Origin: a virus
Lineage: Duplodnaviria; Heunggongvirae; Uroviricota; Caudoviricetes
DNA length: 42,961 nt
Reading direction: 5' to 3' (one strand)
IMG/VR virus record: IMGVR_UViG_2531839476_000018
The notes below the pieces were generated by a model, which was given only the letters and a program-made list of their open reading frames with translations, was not told where the DNA came from and did no database searches. Below, piece after piece: positions 849 through 40,895 of the stretch. Both the position numbers and the translations under genes were made by a program. Within the stretch, counting starts at the first letter, position 1, and the number at the start of each line of letters is the position of its first letter.

Positions 849-1405
849 TTATATAACCCTAGCTGGAAACCTCTTATACAAAGTCGATTCGCCAACATCA
901 TAGATGATCGCCACCTTCTGGCGAGGAATTCCTGCTGCAATTAATCGTCCGGCCTGTGTGCCCATTGTTCTGGTGTAAGTTTGGGACGACGTCCACCAAT
1001 TCGTCCCTGTACGCGAGCAGCTTCCAGTCCAGCTTTTGTTCGTTCAACAATCAGTTCTCGTTCCATTTCAGCCAGGGCACCCATCACATGAAAGAAAAAG
1101 CGCCCCATTGGGGTACTGGTATCAATTGAATCCGTCAGACTACGAAAGTTGATGCCTCGTTCGCGCAACTCCTCCACCAGCACGACAAGATGCCGCATAC
1201 TGCGCCCCAGTCGGTCAAGTTTCCAGACCACCAGCGTATCACCTGCCGATAATGTCCCGAGCAGTTTTTTCAGTCCCGGCCTTTCGGACTTTGTACCGCT
1301 TATCTTGTCTTCAAAAATCAGCTCGCATCCTGCACAGTTCAGCGCATTACGTTGTAGATCTGTGTTCTGGTCATTTGTTGACACACGTACATAGCCAATA
1401 AGCAT
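849..1405 (-). pseudogene. pin: Serine DNA invertase (Hin/Gin/Pin/Cin family), apparently frameshifted between the catalytic domain and the C-terminal HTH domain
   Basis: N-terminus MLIGYVRVSTNDQNTDLQ...VVWKLDRLGRS is the hallmark resolvase/invertase catalytic domain with a GGAG ribosome-binding site 8 nt upstream of ATG 1405. The ORF stops at 941 (…RPKLTPEQWAHRPDD*), while the HTH (QAGRLIAAGIPRQKVAIIYDVGESTLYKRFPARVI*) is encoded in another frame, 849-955. The frames are consistent with 2 extra bases in a CACA repeat near 956-959. Confidence 0.8.
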
Positions 1406-1459
1406 GGTAGATCTCCCTGACAAAAGCAGGAATGATGCCATTTGCTCGTTATTTCTGCA

Positions 1460-1485
1460 TTTTCATAAACGTTGGTTTGGGAGAA
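1460..1485. repeat. hix/gix-like recombination site (right boundary of invertible segment)
   Basis: tttcataaacgttggtttgggagaa; its reverse complement ttctcccaaaccaacgtttatgaaa matches the site at 3395-3419 in 21 of 25 positions and resembles hix half-sites (TTATCAAAAACC). Confidence 0.7.
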
Positions 1486-1863
1486 GCGGCAACGAGGAAC
1501 GTCGGAACGGATACCGGGCAAGTACCAGATATGAGTAGTTTTACAACGGGGCACTCTGGAGTAGCAGACTGGCCGAATCCTAAATCTGGATGGAGTAAGG
1601 GGCCGGATGGGGTAATTACACAATGGGGCATTTTCGGTTTCCCCGTTGGACAGACAGGGACGAATGTTGTTTTCCCGCTACCTTTCCCCGCGCGGGTCGA
1701 ATCAATTACACTGACAATGGCAGATATCCAGGAGTCTCTGCTTTCTCCAACAACCATGCCTGCTTATGGAGTTAACTCAACTGGTACTTCAAGAACGGGT
1801 TTTACAGCCCGTATGTCAGGCGCCGGTGGGTTTAATCTTTGCTATATAGCGAAAGGGAGATAA
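1486..1863 (+). CDS. Alternative tail-fibre C-terminal variable domain (silent in this orientation; would be fused to the constant N-terminus after inversion)
   Basis: The reading frame continues through the crossover site encoding ...VGLGE|AATRNV..., the same LGLGE junction as the expressed fibre at 3395-3420; no start codon or ribosome-binding site of its own. Confidence 0.6.
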   Translation, partial: AATRNVGTDTGQVPDMSSFTTGHSGVADWPNPKSGWSKGPDGVITQWGIFGFPVGQTGTNVVFPLPFPARVESITLTMADIQESLLSPTTMPAYGVNSTGTSRTGFTARMSGAGGFNLCYIAKGR

Positions 1864-1867
1864 CAGA

Positions 1868-2311
1868 ATGAATAAAGTTAAAAGTGTTTACAGCCCGTCC
1901 GAAAATGCAATCTACAACGCAGCGCTATATGAAAGTTATATCAAGGAGGGGACATGGCCGCAGGATGGTATTGAAATCAGCGATGAGGATGCTGTCAGAT
2001 TTAATGGGGGAAATAAGCCAACAGGAAAAATGCTGGGAATGGTTTCAGGGGCCCTTGCATGGGTTGATGAGCCGCCGCTTTCACCAGAACAGAAAATATC
2101 AGATGCAGAAAACATGAAAGCCACATTTCGTGCAAAAGCTGACAGTGAAATATCCTGGCGTCAGGATGCTGTTGATGCTGATATCGCAACTGATGAAGAA
2201 ACTTCAACTCTCACCGAATGGAAGAAATACCGTGTGCTGCTGATGCGTGTTGATACGTCAACAGCACCCGATATTGAATGGCCTACGCCTCCGGCAGTTC
2301 AGGCCAGATGA
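1868..2311 (+). CDS. Tail-fibre assembly protein (alternative copy, for the silent fibre variant)
   Basis: 147 aa ending ...DIEWPTPPAVQAR, the typical Tfa C-terminal motif; immediately follows the alternative fibre exon. Confidence 0.7.
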   Translation: MNKVKSVYSPSENAIYNAALYESYIKEGTWPQDGIEISDEDAVRFNGGNKPTGKMLGMVSGALAWVDEPPLSPEQKISDAENMKATFRAKADSEISWRQDAVDADIATDEETSTLTEWKKYRVLLMRVDTSTAPDIEWPTPPAVQAR

Positions 2312-2876: not shown

Positions 2877-3763
2877 TATTTAGCCCTCACCAGAAAGTTA
2901 AATGCAATATTTCGTGGACGGGTTTCTGTACCTACATTTTCACTAATTTCACCATAACGTTTAACACTACGAGAGCTAATAGCTCGTAGTGAGGAAGGCA
3001 CATTAAGACCGGGTTCGTCCGTTTTAACTATTCCCCCGTCACCATATGTAGCCAGTATTCCTGGGTTTACTCCTTCCCGTGCACTTCCTGCGGCAAGCCC
3101 GTCCCCCGTCCACAATTCCATATTGTGTGCATGATCCATAATTGTGTGTGATTGCCCTGAAAGTAGGGTACGTCCGACATCAATCCCGCGCCCGTCATCC
3201 CAGATACGAATGAAATCACCGCGTGCGTCAGGTAATGCCAGAGCCGGAAACACTTTCGCCAGCACAGGGTAATCAGTGGCAGAGAATTTCGCGCCGTTGA
3301 ACTTCAAAAACACCATACCGGACCAGCTATCGATTACGGTATCTGGCATTGCAGCGGACGGCCAGAAGAACGGAACGCCAATAGCTGGAGCTCCTTCTCC
3401 CAAACCAAGGTTTTCGAGAGCCGTTTCCACCGTGCCATCCGATTTGATATCACCAAACGGATTCTTGCGGCTCAGGTATTCAACAGCAAACCCCGATCCC
3501 AGCAATTCAACAAAACCGGGCAGATCACCATTATCAAGCACATCCCGTTGCGTTTTGTCACTTACAAACTGGGCCAGAGCTGCAGCAATAAAGCTGGCCT
3601 GCCGAATAACCTTATTGACTTGCGCACTGGATGCTTTCCCTGCTGTAAATCCGGATAAAAGCGCAGGCAACGCTTCCCATTCCTCCTGCGACATAACATT
3701 GGCATTCCGATCAGTTGCAAACGCTTTAAAGTCATTTTTCGCCATCAGAGTAATACTCCCCAT
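2876..3763 (-). CDS. Tail fibre protein (constant N-terminus about residues 1-115, variable C-terminus inside the invertible segment)
   Basis: 295-aa ORF with a fibre-like N-terminus ([30 protein letters not shown]...); the crossover site lies in-frame at the codons for LENLGLGEG. Confidence 0.75.
3395..3420. repeat. hix/gix-like recombination site (left boundary, inside the tail-fibre gene)
   Basis: ttctcccaaaccaaggttttcgagag, inverted relative to the site at 1460-1485. Confidence 0.7.
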
Positions 3764-3767
3764 GCCC

Positions 3768-4424
3768 CTACATCAAAACCACTGATGAATTCGTTATCCA
3801 TATCAAAACCAAAAATTTTGAACCTTCCGATGGGGTTTCCACCGAAGGTGTTTCAATGCCACCCGCCCATACCCCGGCGGCTTTTACTGTGAGATACCCC
3901 TGTTTAATTGCCGCAATTAACTCACGCGATACATCTGAAATATCAGTATCAGGAAAGACCCAGACCGATATCGTCATGTCATGGTTATCGACTATCTGCA
4001 TTCGCAGTCCGGATCCTGCTGTTGCCGCGTCAAGAATTGCCGGAAGCGAATCATTCCGTCCGTCCCAGTTATTAATCGCAATCTTCGCTTTAAGGATGAC
4101 ACGATAAGTTTCATCGCTGAGGTACATGTATCCGGAATCAGGATCGTATGGCCCCTGCCATACACCCTGATCATATCCAAGCCCGTCGGTATCCCAGCTG
4201 AAATAGACACCTGAAATAGGCTGGCTGACAACACGGCTACGTCCGATCCACAATCCCAGAATGTCAAGTTGCACACCAACCGCAGAGTCAATATCAAATG
4301 CAGTAATCAGCCCTCTGGTGGCAGCCGCAACATCAATAAGCGGCCGGGTCATCAGATCAACATGTGCAAGAAATTTAGGTTTGGTGGCGTGGTAGTTTGT
4401 GATTAGTTCGGTGTATTTGCTCAT
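3768..4424 (-). CDS. Baseplate / tail protein (P2 gpI-like or Mu gp48-like position)
   Basis: 218-aa ORF between the baseplate J-like gene and the tail fibre; the family call rests on position and recollection. Confidence 0.5.
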
Positions 4425-35022: not shown

Positions 35023-37086
35023 ATGTCCAATATACTATGGGGCGACCTGGAAACCTATTGCGAAATCCCTATTACGAACGGTACCCATGCGTATGCCGAA
35101 GGCGTTGAAGTGATGCTTTTCGCATGGGCTATCAACGACGGGCCAGTAAACGTGTGGGATATCACTGCCGGTGGTGGTATTCCACACGGCTTATACGAAG
35201 CAATCGCAGACCCTGAAACCCTGCTTTATTTCCATAACTCTCACTTCGACCGCACCGTTCTGCGTTATGCAATGCCGCGCCTGGCACCGCCAGTCGAACG
35301 TTGGCGCGACACAATGGTGCAGGCGCTGGCGCACGGCCTCCCGGGGTCTCTGGGGGAACTCTGCGAAATACTCGGCGTCCCGCAAGACAAAGCGAAGGAC
35401 AAAGAAGGTAAAGCGCTGATCCAGCTGTTCTGTAAGCCACGCCCGAAAAACAGCAAACTGCGTCGGGCCACCAGTAAAACCCACCCGGAAGAATGGCGGC
35501 GCTTTGTTGCTTACGCCGGACTGGATATCGAGGCAATGCGCGAAGTCTATAAACGTCTGCCGAAGTGGAATTATCAGGGGACAGAACTGGCGCTCTGGCA
35601 TCGTGATCAGCAGATCAACGACCGGGGCGTCTGCATGGACATTCAACTCGCGCGCGCTGCGATCGAAGCGGTAGACCAGGAGCAAAAGCGCCTGGCAAAG
35701 CGTACACAGGAAATGACTGATGGCGAAGTGCAGGCAGCCACACAACGAGACGCGTTGATTAAGCACATTGTTGAATCCTACGGTGTGGAGCTACCAGACA
35801 TGCAACGCAGTACTCTGGAACGTCGTATTGCCGACCCCGATTTACCATCTGCCGTGAAAGAACTGCTGGCTATCCGCCTGCAGGCCAGTACTACCAGCAC
35901 CAGTAAATACAAGGCACTGATGAAAGGCGTAAGCCACGACGGGCGCTTACGCGGTACGCTACAGTTCTGCGGGGCGTCACGTACCGGTCGTTGGGCCGGA
36001 CGGCTATTCCAGCCCCAGAACCTTCCCCGCCCTTCACTAAAACAGGAACAAATAGACGAAGGCATCGAAGCACTGAAAGCCGGATGTGCAGACCTGCTGT
36101 TTGACAATATCATGGAACTAACCAGTTCAGCGTTACGTGGCTGCATTATCGCGCCAACAGGCAAAAAGCTGGTGGTAAGTGACTTGTCGAACATTGAAGG
36201 CCGTATGCTGGCATGGCTGGCGGGAGAAGAATGGAAACTGAATGCATTCAGAGAGTACGACGCCGGAACGGGTCCGGACTTATATAAACTGGCGTATGCA
36301 AAAGCTTTCGATATTGCACCAGATGATGTTGATAAACACATGCGTCAGATCGGTAAAGTCATGGAACTCGGTCTGGGTTATGGTGGTGGTGTGTCGGCCT
36401 TCATCACTTTTGCACTGGTTTACGGTCTCGATCTCGACGAGCTGGCGAACGCCGCACTACCAAACATTCCCCGCGATGTTATCCGCGAGGCGAAAAGCTG
36501 GTACGACGAATCGGTTAAACGCAAGTCAACCTACGGGCTTTCTGAACGGGTATTTATCGCCTGCGACTCACTTAAACGTCTCTGGCGCCGGGCGCATCCC
36601 GCGACCTGTGATTTCTGGTACGAACTGGAGCGCACCGTCCGCACTGCAATCGCCACACCGCAAAAAACATTGTATTGCGGTTATCTTAAAATCCGCCGCG
36701 ATGGCGCGTGGCTGCGCATACAGCTACCATCCGGACGCGCTGTATGCTACCCGTCTCCGGTTATCGAAAAAGGGAATATCACCTACATGGGGGTTAACTC
36801 TTATTCGCGTAAATGGCAACGACTCAAAACCTACGGCGGAAAGCTGGTGGAGAACATCACCCAGGCGGCCGCCCGCGACATTCTGGCCGGAAACATGCCG
36901 CTTATCGAAGATGCCGGTTACAGCATTGTGCTGACGGTACACGACGAGGTGATCACCGAAGCACCTGACACAGAAGATTTCAACGATAAAGCGCTTTCCG
37001 CGCTTCTCTCCACTGACCCCGAATGGGCGCCCGATATCCCACTGAACGCTGGCGGTTTTGAGGCGTACCACTACAAAAAAGATTGA
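35023..37086 (+). CDS. Family A DNA polymerase (phage type, with N-terminal 3'-5' exonuclease-like domain)
   Basis: 687 aa; polymerase motifs recognisable: motif A-like [15 protein letters not shown], motif B-like [16 protein letters not shown], motif C LTVHDEV. Confidence 0.85.
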
Positions 37087-37150
37087 TATAACTCACCTTA
37101 TCGAGCTATGGCGACATGCTGAATTCGAGTAAATTAAAGGAACAATACTT

Positions 37151-37912
37151 ATGCAGGAACTAACTGAAATGCCGATCACCTATCCATACCCGAGAGAAAC
37201 TTTTCCTGACTTTTTGAGGGAGTGTGGGTTCACCAATTTTTCCCACGAACAGCGTGAGACTTGTGACTGCTATCGTTTAACGAATGGCGTAATTGTTAAC
37301 CTTTACACCACCCGGACCATTCAGTTTCAAGGTAACCCTCAAGAACGTCCCAATGTTGAAACTGCAATAATGACCCATTTAGGAACGCCGCCCACGGCAA
37401 CACCACTAGCCGTAGAACAGCCATCTGAGCTCCCCAAAAAGATATTCATTGTTCACGGCCATGACCATACTGCAAAGGAGCAACTTGAGCTAATCCTTCA
37501 TAAACTTGGATTACCAGACCATTTCATTTTGCAGAATACGGGAGGGACTGGACTCACCATTATTGAAGAGCTTGAACGTGAAATTGGGCAAGGACAAACT
37601 GCTACCCGTTTCGGGATTGTTCTTTTGACACCTGATGATATGGGATACTCAAAGCGCGCCGGTGAAGCAGAAATCCAACCCCGCGCAAGACAGAACGTTG
37701 TACTCGAGATGGGTATGCTTCTTTCGTCCTTAGGGCGCAGCAATGTAGCAATCCTTCAGAAACAGCACCTAGAACAGCCTTCTGATGCTAACGGGATTTT
37801 GTATCTGAATTTCAACGACCATGTACGTGAAACAGTTCCTCGTCTAGTGCAACGGTTACAAAATTCTGGTTTCGAATTTACACAAGCTCAAATAGCTAAC
37901 GCTTCCTCGTAA
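37151..37912 (+). CDS. Hypothetical protein with a C-terminal TIR-like / nucleoside-deoxyribosyltransferase-like motif set; candidate defence effector
   Basis: 253 aa; residues about 100-250 contain KIFIVHGHDHTAKEQLELIL … GIVLLTPDD … NVVLEMGML, resembling TIR-like (COG4271-type) domains as recalled; unknown N-terminal 95 aa; AAGGA ribosome-binding site; own terminator. Confidence 0.4.
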   Translation: MQELTEMPITYPYPRETFPDFLRECGFTNFSHEQRETCDCYRLTNGVIVNLYTTRTIQFQGNPQERPNVETAIMTHLGTPPTATPLAVEQPSELPKKIFIVHGHDHTAKEQLELILHKLGLPDHFILQNTGGTGLTIIEELEREIGQGQTATRFGIVLLTPDDMGYSKRAGEAEIQPRARQNVVLEMGMLLSSLGRSNVAILQKQHLEQPSDANGILYLNFNDHVRETVPRLVQRLQNSGFEFTQAQIANASS

Positions 37913-37935
37913 TTACCCCTTATTGTTGATTACAA

Positions 37936-37960
37936 CCCTGCATCGCGGGGTTTTTTATTT
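37936..37960 (+). terminator. Intrinsic terminator after the TIR-like gene
   Basis: ccctgc-atc-gcgggg stem (one G-U pair) followed by TTTTTTATTT. Confidence 0.55.
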
Positions 37961-37975
37961 GGGAATAAAAACCCT

Positions 37976-38110
37976 ATGTCATTTAAATACCGGGACAGTC
38001 CGCTTTATTACCGGACTGTGCGGGAGGCTTTGCACCTTGAACAGTCCGGCGGGTACGACCGGGCGATGCAGGTCTGGGCCAAAGCGAACGTCGGTTTGAT
38101 TTTTGTCTGA
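37976..38110 (+). CDS. Possible small ORF (44 aa)
   Basis: ATG at 37976, stop TGA at 38108-38110; weak ribosome-binding site; not in the ORF track (under 60 aa). Confidence 0.2.
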   Translation: MSFKYRDSPLYYRTVREALHLEQSGGYDRAMQVWAKANVGLIFV

Positions 38111-38146
38111 TGCAGAACATGCGCGAAAAGCGTAAGGAGGTGGACG

Positions 38147-38341
38147 ATGTCTAATATCGATAATAAGGGTTGGGGGTTCCCCGCTCTGTCAAAAAAAGCA
38201 CATTTCTTTAATTCGGGGGAAGCCATATCACTATGCGGAAAATGGATGTTCATAGGTATCAGGATTGATGAATGGCATGACCATCCTGAGAACTGCGCTA
38301 TCTGCATGAAGAAACGCAAAAAGCAGGAAGGCGAAAGCTAA
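38147..38341 (+). CDS. Small Cys-rich protein
   Basis: 64 aa with C…C…CAIC; stop overlaps the VRR-NUC start. Confidence 0.4.
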   Translation: MSNIDNKGWGFPALSKKAHFFNSGEAISLCGKWMFIGIRIDEWHDHPENCAICMKKRKKQEGES

Positions 38342-38628
38342 TGGCCTATGAACGTGAAAACCTAATCGAAAAGCACCTCGTCGCTGAAGTAAAAAAGGCT
38401 GGCGGGGTTGCCTTTAAGTTCGTATCCCCCGGTCGCCGCTCGGTACCAGATCGCATTGTTCTGCTACCCGGCGGTCGTATCATTTTCGTTGAATGTAAAT
38501 CCCCCGGCAAGCCACCACGGCCTGACCAGTTGCGCGAACACGGACGGTTGCGCGCGCTGGGCTTTACCGTAGTGGTGCTGGATAGCAAAAATCTGGAGGC
38601 CATTATTTTAAGCCGCAATAAAGGATAA
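38341..38628 (+). CDS. VRR-NUC domain nuclease
   Basis: 95 aa with PDRIVLLPGGRIIFVECK (PD…(D/E)xK core) as recalled for VRR-NUC. Confidence 0.7.
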   Translation: MAYERENLIEKHLVAEVKKAGGVAFKFVSPGRRSVPDRIVLLPGGRIIFVECKSPGKPPRPDQLREHGRLRALGFTVVVLDSKNLEAIILSRNKG

Positions 38629-38640
38629 AAGACTTATGCT

Positions 38641-39273
38641 TTAATCCGTATTTTTAACACGTATTTCGAAACACCCTTTTAATTTAGCTATTTCCTTTTT
38701 AGAGGACATGATTGTGAATCTCATCCCTTTTAAATCATTAACAAATTCAAATTTTGCGCTATTTGACTCACAATCACCAACAACAAAACCACTACCAAAT
38801 GAATTGAGCAACACTTTAGTATTACTACCATCTACCATATAATATTCGTTATTTTTAAATGCAGTAACCTTCCCGAATGTATAGCTCAATATCAACAACG
38901 TTATCACCCCTAAAGGAAAAGCTGACTTTAGGATTTTTAAATCGATATAATAAAATACGTTCTTATACTCTGCAAGCCTCCCAAATTTTCTAATGCTCTC
39001 CATATGATGTTCGTGTCTCTTACTATGGATTGGCATGGACACCACATTGTGATAATTCAACAAAAGCATAGCAAATAATAAAATATCCTGAACACTCATC
39101 ACAGAAGTTTCGGAGAAATAACCAAAAGGCCAATGAAATCCTATTATACAAATATTAGCCATTAGCATAACAACTATAAATACAATAAATGGAACATAAT
39201 ATTTCCCTTTCAAATCAAACATCAACGCCGCATATAAGGCGCCGAGAAATAAAAAACTAAAAACAAAAGCCAC
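38641..39273 (-). CDS. AT-rich island 2, distal ORF: polytopic membrane protein of unknown function (cargo, antisense)
   Basis: 210 aa with several TM helices followed by a soluble C-terminal domain; AT-rich. Confidence 0.5.
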   Translation of the reverse strand: MAFVFSFLFLGALYAALMFDLKGKYYVPFIVFIVVMLMANICIIGFHWPFGYFSETSVMSVQDILLFAMLLLNYHNVVSMPIHSKRHEHHMESIRKFGRLAEYKNVFYYIDLKILKSAFPLGVITLLILSYTFGKVTAFKNNEYYMVDGSNTKVLLNSFGSGFVVGDCESNSAKFEFVNDLKGMRFTIMSSKKEIAKLKGCFEIRVKNTD

Positions 39274-39437
39274 ACAGCCGAATACAATAGCGTATTTAAG
39301 TCTATTTTAATAAAAAGGTCTGGATAGCCATAATACGATGCAACACCTTTCTGAAAAGAATATGCCATCGCATAAGCTAACGCTGAAAACATAGTTAATA
39401 AAGAAACTTGCTTTGTAAATATTTTCGCCAGGGGCAT
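39222..39437 (-). CDS. AT-rich island 2, proximal ORF (membrane protein fragment); possibly the frameshifted N-terminal part of one gene
   Basis: 71-aa hydrophobic ORF overlapping the 210-aa ORF in another frame across A/T homopolymer runs (39247-39269). Confidence 0.4.
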   Translation of the reverse strand: MPLAKIFTKQVSLLTMFSALAYAMAYSFQKGVASYYGYPDLFIKIDLNTLLYSAVWLLFLVFYFSAPYMRR

Positions 39438-39500
39438 ACCCGCCTCCGTTAGTTATATATATAGAGAGAGAAGTGACCATATTCTACCATAGGTGTATTA

Positions 39501-40895
39501 ATGAATAGCATATTCCACCCCAGAGTTTATCAAAACCTCATAATCAATCACCAAACTAACATTCTGCGCGGCAACATCTGGGCGGGTATGGGAATGGGTA
39601 AAACCGTGGCAACGCTCACTGCGCTGGAAGATCTCTTTATGGCAGGGGCAGAAACATGCCCCGCACTGGTCCTCGCGCCGCTGCGCGTGGCTGCCAGCAC
39701 ATGGCCGGATGAAGCACTGAAGTGGGGACATTTGCGCAATATCGAGGTGCAGCCAATTATTGGTAATGCCAAAGCGCGCTCTATGGCGCTGACGAACAGC
39801 AACGCAAGCGTGTTCACCATCAACTACGATAACCTTGTCTGGCTGATTGAAGAATTGGGAGAACGATGGCCGTTCGGTACTGTCATTCCAGATGAAAGCA
39901 CCCGGCTAAAATCCTTCCGGCTGCGCGGTGGTGGTAAGCGCGCGGCGGCGCTGGGCAAAGTGGCGCATAAGTATGTCCGGCGCTGGATAAATCTCACCGG
40001 TACGCCAGCACCGAACGGCCTGGTAGATTTGTGGGGACAATCGTGGTTTGTGGACCAGGGGCAACGTCTCGGGCGCACTTACGGCGCGTTTACCTCACGC
40101 TGGTTCAACTCGATACAGTTTCCGGGGCAGAGCTGGACCAAACTGGAGCCTTTTGCTCACTCACAGGGTGAAATACAGCGAGCGTTAGCCGATGTAACCC
40201 TCTCGCTGGATGCGGCCGACTGGTTCGATATCAAAGACCCCATCCATAACGTAATCCGCGTGGATATGCCACCGAAGGCCCGTCAGCAGTATCGTGAAAT
40301 GGAAAAGGAAATGTTCCTCGAGCTGAATGGCGAAGGCATCGAAGCACCGAACGCCGCGGCAAAGACACTGAAGTGTCTGCAAATCGCCAGCGGCGCAGTA
40401 TACACAGATGACACCGGAAGTTGGTCAGAACTGCATGACACCAAACTACAGGCGCTGGACAGCATACTGACCGAAGCAGCTGGCGCACCTGTGCTGGTTG
40501 CTTATCACTGGAAACACGATCTTGAACGCTTGCTTAAAGCATTCCCTCGCGGTCGTCACCTCGACCAGGATCCACAGACACTGCGCGACTGGAATTCCGG
40601 AAAGATTCCTGTTCTCTTTGCACACCCAGCCAGCGCGGGCCACGGCCTGAACATGCAGGACGGCGGAAATATACTGGTATTTTTCTCACACTGGTGGGAC
40701 CTGGAGCAATATCAGCAAATTATTGAACGTATCGGCCCCACCAGGCAGATACAGGCCGGACACAATCGTCCGGTATTTATTCACCACATTATTGCTGCCG
40801 ACACTATGGATGAAATGGTGATGGAGCGGCGCAACTCAAAACGAACAGTGCAGGACATCCTGCTCGATGCCATGAAAAAGAGAGGTATAGCATGA
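39501..40895 (+). CDS. SNF2-family helicase / ATPase
   Basis: 464 aa; Walker A GMGMGKT, DEXx-like VIPDEST, and C-terminal helicase motifs. Confidence 0.8.
   Translation: MNSIFHPRVYQNLIINHQTNILRGNIWAGMGMGKTVATLTALEDLFMAGAETCPALVLAPLRVAASTWPDEALKWGHLRNIEVQPIIGNAKARSMALTNSNASVFTINYDNLVWLIEELGERWPFGTVIPDESTRLKSFRLRGGGKRAAALGKVAHKYVRRWINLTGTPAPNGLVDLWGQSWFVDQGQRLGRTYGAFTSRWFNSIQFPGQSWTKLEPFAHSQGEIQRALADVTLSLDAADWFDIKDPIHNVIRVDMPPKARQQYREMEKEMFLELNGEGIEAPNAAAKTLKCLQIASGAVYTDDTGSWSELHDTKLQALDSILTEAAGAPVLVAYHWKHDLERLLKAFPRGRHLDQDPQTLRDWNSGKIPVLFAHPASAGHGLNMQDGGNILVFFSHWWDLEQYQQIIERIGPTRQIQAGHNRPVFIHHIIAADTMDEMVMERRNSKRTVQDILLDAMKKRGIA

Follow-up and report, generated by a model that had tools for sequence, protein, structure and literature searches.

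A recent 2-bp insertion disrupts the pin invertase gene of an Escherichia coli prophage whose fibre segment still inverts, most likely in trans

The window that we analysed, a stretch of 42,961 nucleotides from a tailed-phage record (IMGVR_UViG_2531839476_000018), contains a pinE-type serine DNA invertase gene next to an invertible tail fibre segment (Table 1). The catalytic frame of the invertase starts at an ATG at 1405 on the minus strand, reads MLIGYVRVSTNDQ... and ends at a TAA stop (941-943) after 154 codons. Its product matched the Resolvase family (Pfam PF00239, E=1.4e-50), and the catalytic domain with its serine nucleophile (YVRVS9T) was aligned to residues 1-149 of Gin. The DNA-binding domain, HTH_7, was found solely out of frame (-1/+2), past the (CA)3 tract, in a 38-aa open reading frame (E=5.8e-9) whose first codon is an in-frame ATG (963-965). 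Aligned at the DNA level with pinE of E. coli O55:H7 DEC5B, which is intact, the window gene differed in length solely by a 2-bp CA insertion (GGGCACACAGG in the window vs. GGGCACAGG in DEC5B). Deletion of one CA in silico gave a 184-aa protein, which showed 93-95% identity to the intact PinE proteins used for comparison and aligned over its full length with Gin of phage Mu (PDB 3UJ3, E=3.7e-93). Because HTH_7 is out of frame, the gene is a pseudogene of the Fis-dependent serine invertase family and not a functional member of it.

An earlier note on this DNA, made from the sequence alone, had proposed that the invertase is frameshifted where the catalytic domain meets the HTH domain and that the resulting protein is devoid of its DNA-binding part. 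The open reading frames, the Pfam matches and the DEC5B alignment agree with both proposals, HTH_7 being encoded only in the other frame beyond the CA repeat. The alignment with known invertases that the note had recommended bears this out as well, since the repaired protein is highly identical to PinE and can be aligned with Mu Gin over its whole length. Two positions need correction. The two extra bases in the CA repeat are indeed there, but the tract occupies 955-960 rather than about 956-959; the reading frames are as the note described them, but the start that it gave at 1441 is an upstream in-frame ATG, the homologous start being the ATG at 1405. The frameshift itself is already known, as the public PGAP annotation flags the identical DEC5E sequence as "pinE, frameshifted".

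Replication slippage would, most simply, have turned (CA)2 into (CA)3. The truncated product keeps the whole catalytic domain and loses the HTH that binds the crossover sites. Helix 1 of the lost HTH domain is also the part that contacts Fis: in Hin, Fis contacts helix 1 of the DNA-binding domain at Q151, R154 and L155 (PMC3798978), and the equivalent residues of Pin, Q150, R153 and L154, are encoded just past the frameshift.

Table 1. Coordinates of the invertase gene, its lesion and the invertible fibre segment (positions in the window)
Feature	Position	Strand	Remarks
pinE-type serine DNA invertase pseudogene	849..1405	-	557 nt vs. 555 nt in intact alleles
Out-of-frame HTH_7 DNA-binding domain remnant	849..956	-	QAGRLIAAGIPRQKVAIIYDVGESTLYKRFPARVI, then stop (849-851); Pfam HTH_7
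Open catalytic-domain frame, 154 aa	941..1405	-	Ser9 in YVRVSTNDQ; C-terminal end ...PEQWAHRPDD, then stop
(CA)3 tract (2-bp insertion)	955..960	-	TGTGTG on + strand; (CA)2 in intact alleles
Codon 50, Arg to Gly (R50G)	1256..1258	-	Second private change; taken as equivalent of Hin Lys51, helix B
Putative recombinational enhancer	1321..1383	-	Two Fis-consensus 15-mers at gene nt 30 and 78, 48 bp apart
pin-proximal crossover site (pix)	1461..1486	.	TTTCATAAACG-TT-GGTTTGGGAGAAG
Invertible segment	1474..3406	.	1933 bp between core dinucleotides; inverted in other contigs
Alternative fibre C-terminus Sv', silent here	1487..1863	+	Pfam Gp53-like_C, E=1.9e-10
Alternative tail fibre assembly protein (TAP'), 147 aa, silent here	1868..2311	+	Pfam Caudo_TAP, E=6.5e-33
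Tail fibre assembly protein paired with Sv, 197 aa	2283..2876	-	Pfam Caudo_TAP, E=1.8e-28
Tail fibre expressed in present orientation, 289 aa	2876..3745	-	Constant part 3421-3745 plus variable Sv
Distal crossover site (pix)	3395..3420	.	TTCTCCCAAACC-AA-GGTTTTCGAGAG; inside fibre gene, encodes ENLGLGE

The segment is bounded by two 26-bp pix sites, which are inverted with respect to each other and have complementary TT and AA cores; the positions are 1461-1486 and 3395-3420, and the earlier note was right in where it had placed the two junctions. Both sites are identical to those beside the intact pinE of a second prophage of DEC5E and of Sakai Sp1. Within pin, two matches to a degenerate Fis consensus mark a putative enhancer. 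Matches at equal positions and with equal spacing were found in Mu gin and in Sakai pinE; the Mu GenBank record has no annotated enhancer, and this comparison was made by a Fis-consensus scan. The 289-aa fibre showed a weak match to Collar (Pfam) and is present in the databases as the exact protein EIQ69709.1/STI84367.1. When the segment 1474-3406 was inverted in silico, the fibre gene remained in frame and encoded an alternative fibre of 242 aa (Sc+Sv'), and this exact 242-aa fibre was found in public assemblies.

The closest known systems are PinE with the P segment of e14 and the pinE of prophage Sp1 of O157:H7 Sakai; the repaired protein has 93-95% identity to those intact PinE proteins that were compared. 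The layout (pin, pix, Sv', TAP', TAP, Sv, pix, constant fibre part) is common to all three, and the crossover inverted repeat, TTGGTTTGGGAGAAG, is that of the e14 P segment (PMC12529663). Unlike the e14 and Sp1 genes, the window copy has the CA frameshift and R50G, and it lies in a 43-kb myovirus-type prophage inserted between yfhL and yfhH. Gin and the G segment of Mu are also close: over its full length, the repaired protein can be aligned with Gin (PDB 3UJ3/4M6F, E about 1e-93), the Fis-consensus matches fall at equal gene positions, 48 bp apart, and the G segment has the same Sc-Sv-U / U'-Sv' architecture. However, the DNA identity with Mu is only about 72%, the fibre cassettes are other ones and the window phage is not transposable. 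Among other phages, vB_EcoM-689R2, -611R5 and -606R2 matched the 24.6-kb structural region of the window at 98% identity over 91% of its length, and Salmonella phage SEN34 was 81% identical to this region. The related phage vB_EcoM-689R6 has an annotated DNA invertase, the gene of which is 92% identical to that of the window.

The (CA)3 allele is rare. It was present in 1 of the 1032 complete E. coli records holding our 86-mer, namely that of O55:H7 DEC5E. By exact-sequence look-up, the exact 154-aa product was nevertheless traced to at least 24 contigs of independently made assemblies, which comprised NCBI drafts, a PacBio assembly of NCTC type and Illumina-based Logan assemblies of SRA runs (product accessions EHV47279.1, EIQ69706.1, STI84370.1, and CTS53122.1). 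All of these contigs showed the same prophage end, adjoining yfhH-tadA-mltF-purL. The 2012 draft of DEC5E and its later complete genome, which are two separate sequencings, were 100% identical at the locus. The window was 100% identical over 7.4 kb to AKNI01000032.1 (GCA_000268205.1; proteins labelled E. coli EPEC C342-62), and it was set apart from the DEC5E prophage by 71 mismatches and 3 gaps in 37 kb of alignment, together with a replaced module. The earlier note had left room for a sequencing error; this is ruled out by an allele that is identical in many independent assemblies, including two of DEC5E, and is thus real and inherited.

The allele was found next to diverged chromosomal sequences. 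The chromosomal flank of contig L012 had 55 mismatches in ~4.5 kb when compared with L005, 54 of them beyond the prophage end, and the prophage end was identical apart from one mismatch. Similarly, the yfhH-purL flank of contig L009 differed from that of L005 by 13 substitutions, while the prophage end with (CA)3 was identical. Diverged flanks around a near-identical prophage end indicate that the allele has reached at least three chromosomal backgrounds. Such a spread suggests, most simply, lysogenisation, and suggests that the phage can still be transmitted without an invertase of its own.

Besides the CA insertion, the pin allele carries two private substitutions, R50G and a change at nt 189 that does not affect the protein. 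Among complete genomes, DEC5E alone has both. The three changes occur together, as they would on a single inherited haplotype, and this speaks against a sequencing artefact. The intact allele of STEFF_1, which occupies the same chromosomal site, differed over nt 148-557 by R50G, nt 189, and CA only, and its HTH is identical to the HTH remnant of the window. The first 147 nt of pin did not differ from the intact alleles of DEC5A, DEC5B, and Sakai in any base, and the putative enhancer is thus unchanged. With so few differences from STEFF_1, the lesion must be recent, and it is the young age of the allele, not selection, that accounts for the intact HTH frame. Some unusual residues in the 3' part (A132V, E172, and the C-terminal ARVI) were considered as possible decay after the frameshift; this was rejected because intact STEFF_1 shares them. 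No (CA)2 version of the privately marked haplotype was found among complete genomes.

R50G concerns the basic residues of helix B, of which K46 and K47 are present while position 50 is Gly instead of Arg/Lys. We take codon 50 to be the equivalent of Hin K51, from the Gin alignment and an assumed one-residue offset of the Hin numbering. Residue 51 of Hin is invariably K or R among invertases and is required for activation by Fis and the enhancer (PMC3798978). R50G would thus strip the protein of a basic helix-B residue conserved in all invertases and is probably damaging. Reversion of the CA insertion alone, with R50G kept, might not restore full activity.

Other parts of the prophage also differ among carriers. 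The baseplate wedge gene (DUF2612/Phage_Wedge1; 3768-4424, minus strand), which lies just 5' of the fibre gene, has suffered separate damage in two of them. In the window and in L005, one base is missing from a T6 run (A5 at 3811-3815), which replaces the last 22 aa by 14 and shifts the stop away from the fibre start codon; this homopolymer deletion could be a draft-assembly error. In DEC5E, the same gene has a premature stop (W119*), and it encodes the full 226 aa in L004 and in relatives with an intact pin. The window and the DEC5E prophage were 99.8% identical outside a replaced module of ~2.5 kb (37074-39537) and a far end with 97% identity. A second prophage of the same family is present at pphA in DEC5E (L019, 3039574-3050873) and in DEC5A. 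Together, the replaced module and the pphA siblings point to mosaic exchange among sibling prophages.

Both orientations of the fibre segment were linked to the (CA)3 allele. The insertion and an inverted segment were found on one and the same contig in L011 (GCA_000690985.1), L023 (GCA_003333865.1), and L022/L027 (GCA_900449145.1), and the segment was also inverted relative to the window in L024, L025, L026, and DEC5B. The junction in L011, AATAGCTGGAGCTC|CTTCTCCCAAACCAACGTTTATGAAA, is exactly the one predicted by in-silico inversion at the core and falls at the 1461-1486 site. In the PacBio assembly GCA_900449145.1, the window orientation (A) was present on a 5.19-Mb contig (L004, UGCP01000002.1) and the inverted one (B) on a 23-kb contig (L022/L027, UGCP01000003.1), with (CA)3 on both. 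UGCP01000003.1 duplicates the junction between chromosome and prophage, and its main difference is the inversion of the fibre segment, in addition to many small indels. This single, indel-rich PacBio contig thus appears to be an alternative-orientation haplotig, as from a mixed culture.

A further line of evidence came from an IS66-family insertion at window position 2202, in the TAP' gene (1868-2311), which has the same junction in five contigs. Within this marked sublineage, orientation A was found in L006, L008, and L010, each with (CA)3, and orientation B in L024 and L026. The element consists of TnpB_IS66 and DDE_Tnp_IS66 genes and lies in the silent chaperone gene. Another insertion, at a CTAA target in Sv (window 2966-2969), was seen at positions 1-100 of L011 and at the end of L025, a sublineage in the inverted orientation; from its ends we take it to be IS5. 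Contigs that break exactly at pix (L012 and L013) were also considered as a sign of mixed orientation, but were rejected as ambiguous because the identical pix-plus-leader sequence in a second prophage would cause the same break in the assembly graph.

Since any mutation first appears in a single molecule with the segment in a single orientation, the inversion must have happened after the frameshift, and repeatedly. It cannot be credited to the own product of the window gene. The earlier note had considered that the fibre segment might be locked, with a fixed host range, and had stated that finding both orientations in a clonal population without another invertase would speak against this. Both orientations were indeed found with (CA)3, across assemblies, within GCA_900449145.1 and within the IS66-marked lineage, so the idea of a locked segment does not stand, though DEC5E does have another invertase.

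This other invertase belongs to the sibling prophage at pphA in DEC5E, which encodes an intact 184-aa PinE (E3158_RS14855, 93% identical) and has an invertible fibre segment of its own. In the crossover sites and the pin leader, this prophage does not differ from the window. A candidate position of the second DEC5E pin at the Sp1/CP-933H site proved to be the wrong place, and the gene was located via the pphA-site prophage of DEC5A; at the Sp1-like remnant of DEC5E (tRNA-Thr/proA), no pin was found. The latter region (L017, 4418935-4429688) is a degraded Sp1/CP-933H equivalent next to tRNA-Thr/proA, with effector genes and part of a tail-fibre assembly gene; unlike its counterpart in O157:H7 Sakai, it lacks pinE. 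More generally, a close pin homologue was present in 2555 of 5426 complete E. coli genomes, and a tblastn search of the window found no second serine recombinase. Experimentally, the P segment of e14 is inverted by both PinQ (from the Qin prophage) and PinE (from e14 itself), and PinR has been added as a further inverter in the discussion of the same work (PMC12529663). The situation described here is similar to that of PinQ and PinR (Qin, Rac) acting on the e14 P segment, in that the inverted repeats are the same and flipping in trans is proposed (PMC12529663). The difference is that the published system has an intact resident PinE, and the flipping by PinQ and by PinE was measured in experiments, whereas the resident gene of the window is dead and its helper would be that of the second DEC5E prophage.

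Several other explanations were weighed against inversion in trans of a segment with a truly broken pin. An error of sequencing or assembly, the true sequence being (CA)2 and the invertase intact, would fit with an insertion that is seen in just 1 of 1032 complete-genome records and with the fact that assembly errors are often indels. Its probability becomes negligible, however, in view of the exact truncated protein on at least 24 contigs from several projects and platforms (Illumina-based Logan, NCBI drafts, and PacBio), the agreement of two independent DEC5E sequencings and the two further private substitutions that travel with the CA insertion. It is also very improbable that, without its invertase, the fibre segment is locked in a single orientation and the host range thereby fixed. 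K-12 pinE mutants do have a locked e14 P segment under ordinary conditions (PMC12529663), and the window is without another serine recombinase (tblastn), but both orientations occur on (CA)3 contigs, and they do so within one assembly (L004 vs. L022) and within one IS-marked lineage. Locking is thus refuted for the lineage overall; an individual host without a helper invertase could still be locked.

The prophage might also supply the activity itself, if ribosomes now and then shifted by -1, or slippage occurred, at GCA-CAC-AGG to give full-length Pin, if (CA)3 reverted to (CA)2 in subpopulations, or if separate catalytic and HTH polypeptides cooperated. This would agree with the finding of inversion in each carrier sublineage examined and with an HTH frame that is fully intact and begins with the in-frame ATG at 963-965. 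Yet GGGCACACAGG contains no slippery heptamer (X XXY YYZ), the ATG at 963-965 is not preceded by a Shine-Dalgarno sequence and the recent origin of the allele accounts for its intact HTH frame. Furthermore, the insertion is not conserved in other pin alleles (1 of 1032 records), which argues that it is not a recoding signal; with an unconserved shift site and no slippery motif, the locus does not qualify as a programmed ribosomal frameshift. Nor does it behave as a simple-sequence-repeat contingency locus, as there are 3 units only and the carriers all encode the identical 154-aa product. The residue affected by R50G is required for activation by Fis (PMC3798978), and the complete genomes yielded no (CA)2 revertant that bears the private markers. 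Having lost the DNA-binding and Fis-contact domain, and carrying R50G in addition, the gene is therefore unlikely to be the source of the activity, and we give this explanation a low probability. Similarly, we hold it for very doubtful that a catalytic-only protein has been kept for a new role, such as heterodimers with a co-resident Pin that damp or bias inversion. The allele is present in several chromosomal backgrounds, the dimerisation helix E is kept and residues 1-150 are 98% identical to intact DEC5B PinE (tblastn), but there was no sign of selection in an allele that is very young, rare and burdened with the probably damaging R50G, and phage genes nearby are also decaying. On the whole, there is a slight chance that the Pin fragment modulates a co-resident Pin, for example in heterodimers with one DNA-binding domain, or that (CA)3 is occasionally read through. 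If this were true, the lineage would tune fibre switching via a "broken" gene instead of losing control of it.

We are thus left with inversion in trans as the preferred explanation. The cis machinery appears to be untouched, with its two 26-bp pix sites, a putative Fis enhancer and two in-frame fibre/chaperone cassettes, so that the 1.93-kb segment still inverts, this activity most likely being supplied in trans by the intact Pin-family invertases of co-resident prophages. We infer that the 154-aa protein is inactive and that a paralogue performs the inversion, a gene for such a helper having been located in DEC5E. Complementation in trans is most likely the mechanism, being the one best supported by the data. 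Taken as a whole, we are quite confident that a real, recent and heritable 2-bp insertion has turned pin into a pseudogene and that the segment continues to invert, most likely in trans.

In itself, this is an ordinary case of recent pseudogenisation in a well-known family, with a known kind of cross-complementation, and its importance is small outside annotation hygiene. What it adds is that a fibre switch outlives its own invertase. It provides a small natural example of complementation across prophages, with a datable lesion ((CA)3 and R50G) and both orientations of the segment, and it fits with the recent experiments in which several prophage invertases flip one e14 segment. A frameshifted invertase does not mean a fixed host range where the host has other Pin-family invertases. 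The competence to switch would be decided by the cis sites, about half of complete E. coli genomes having a close homologue of pin.
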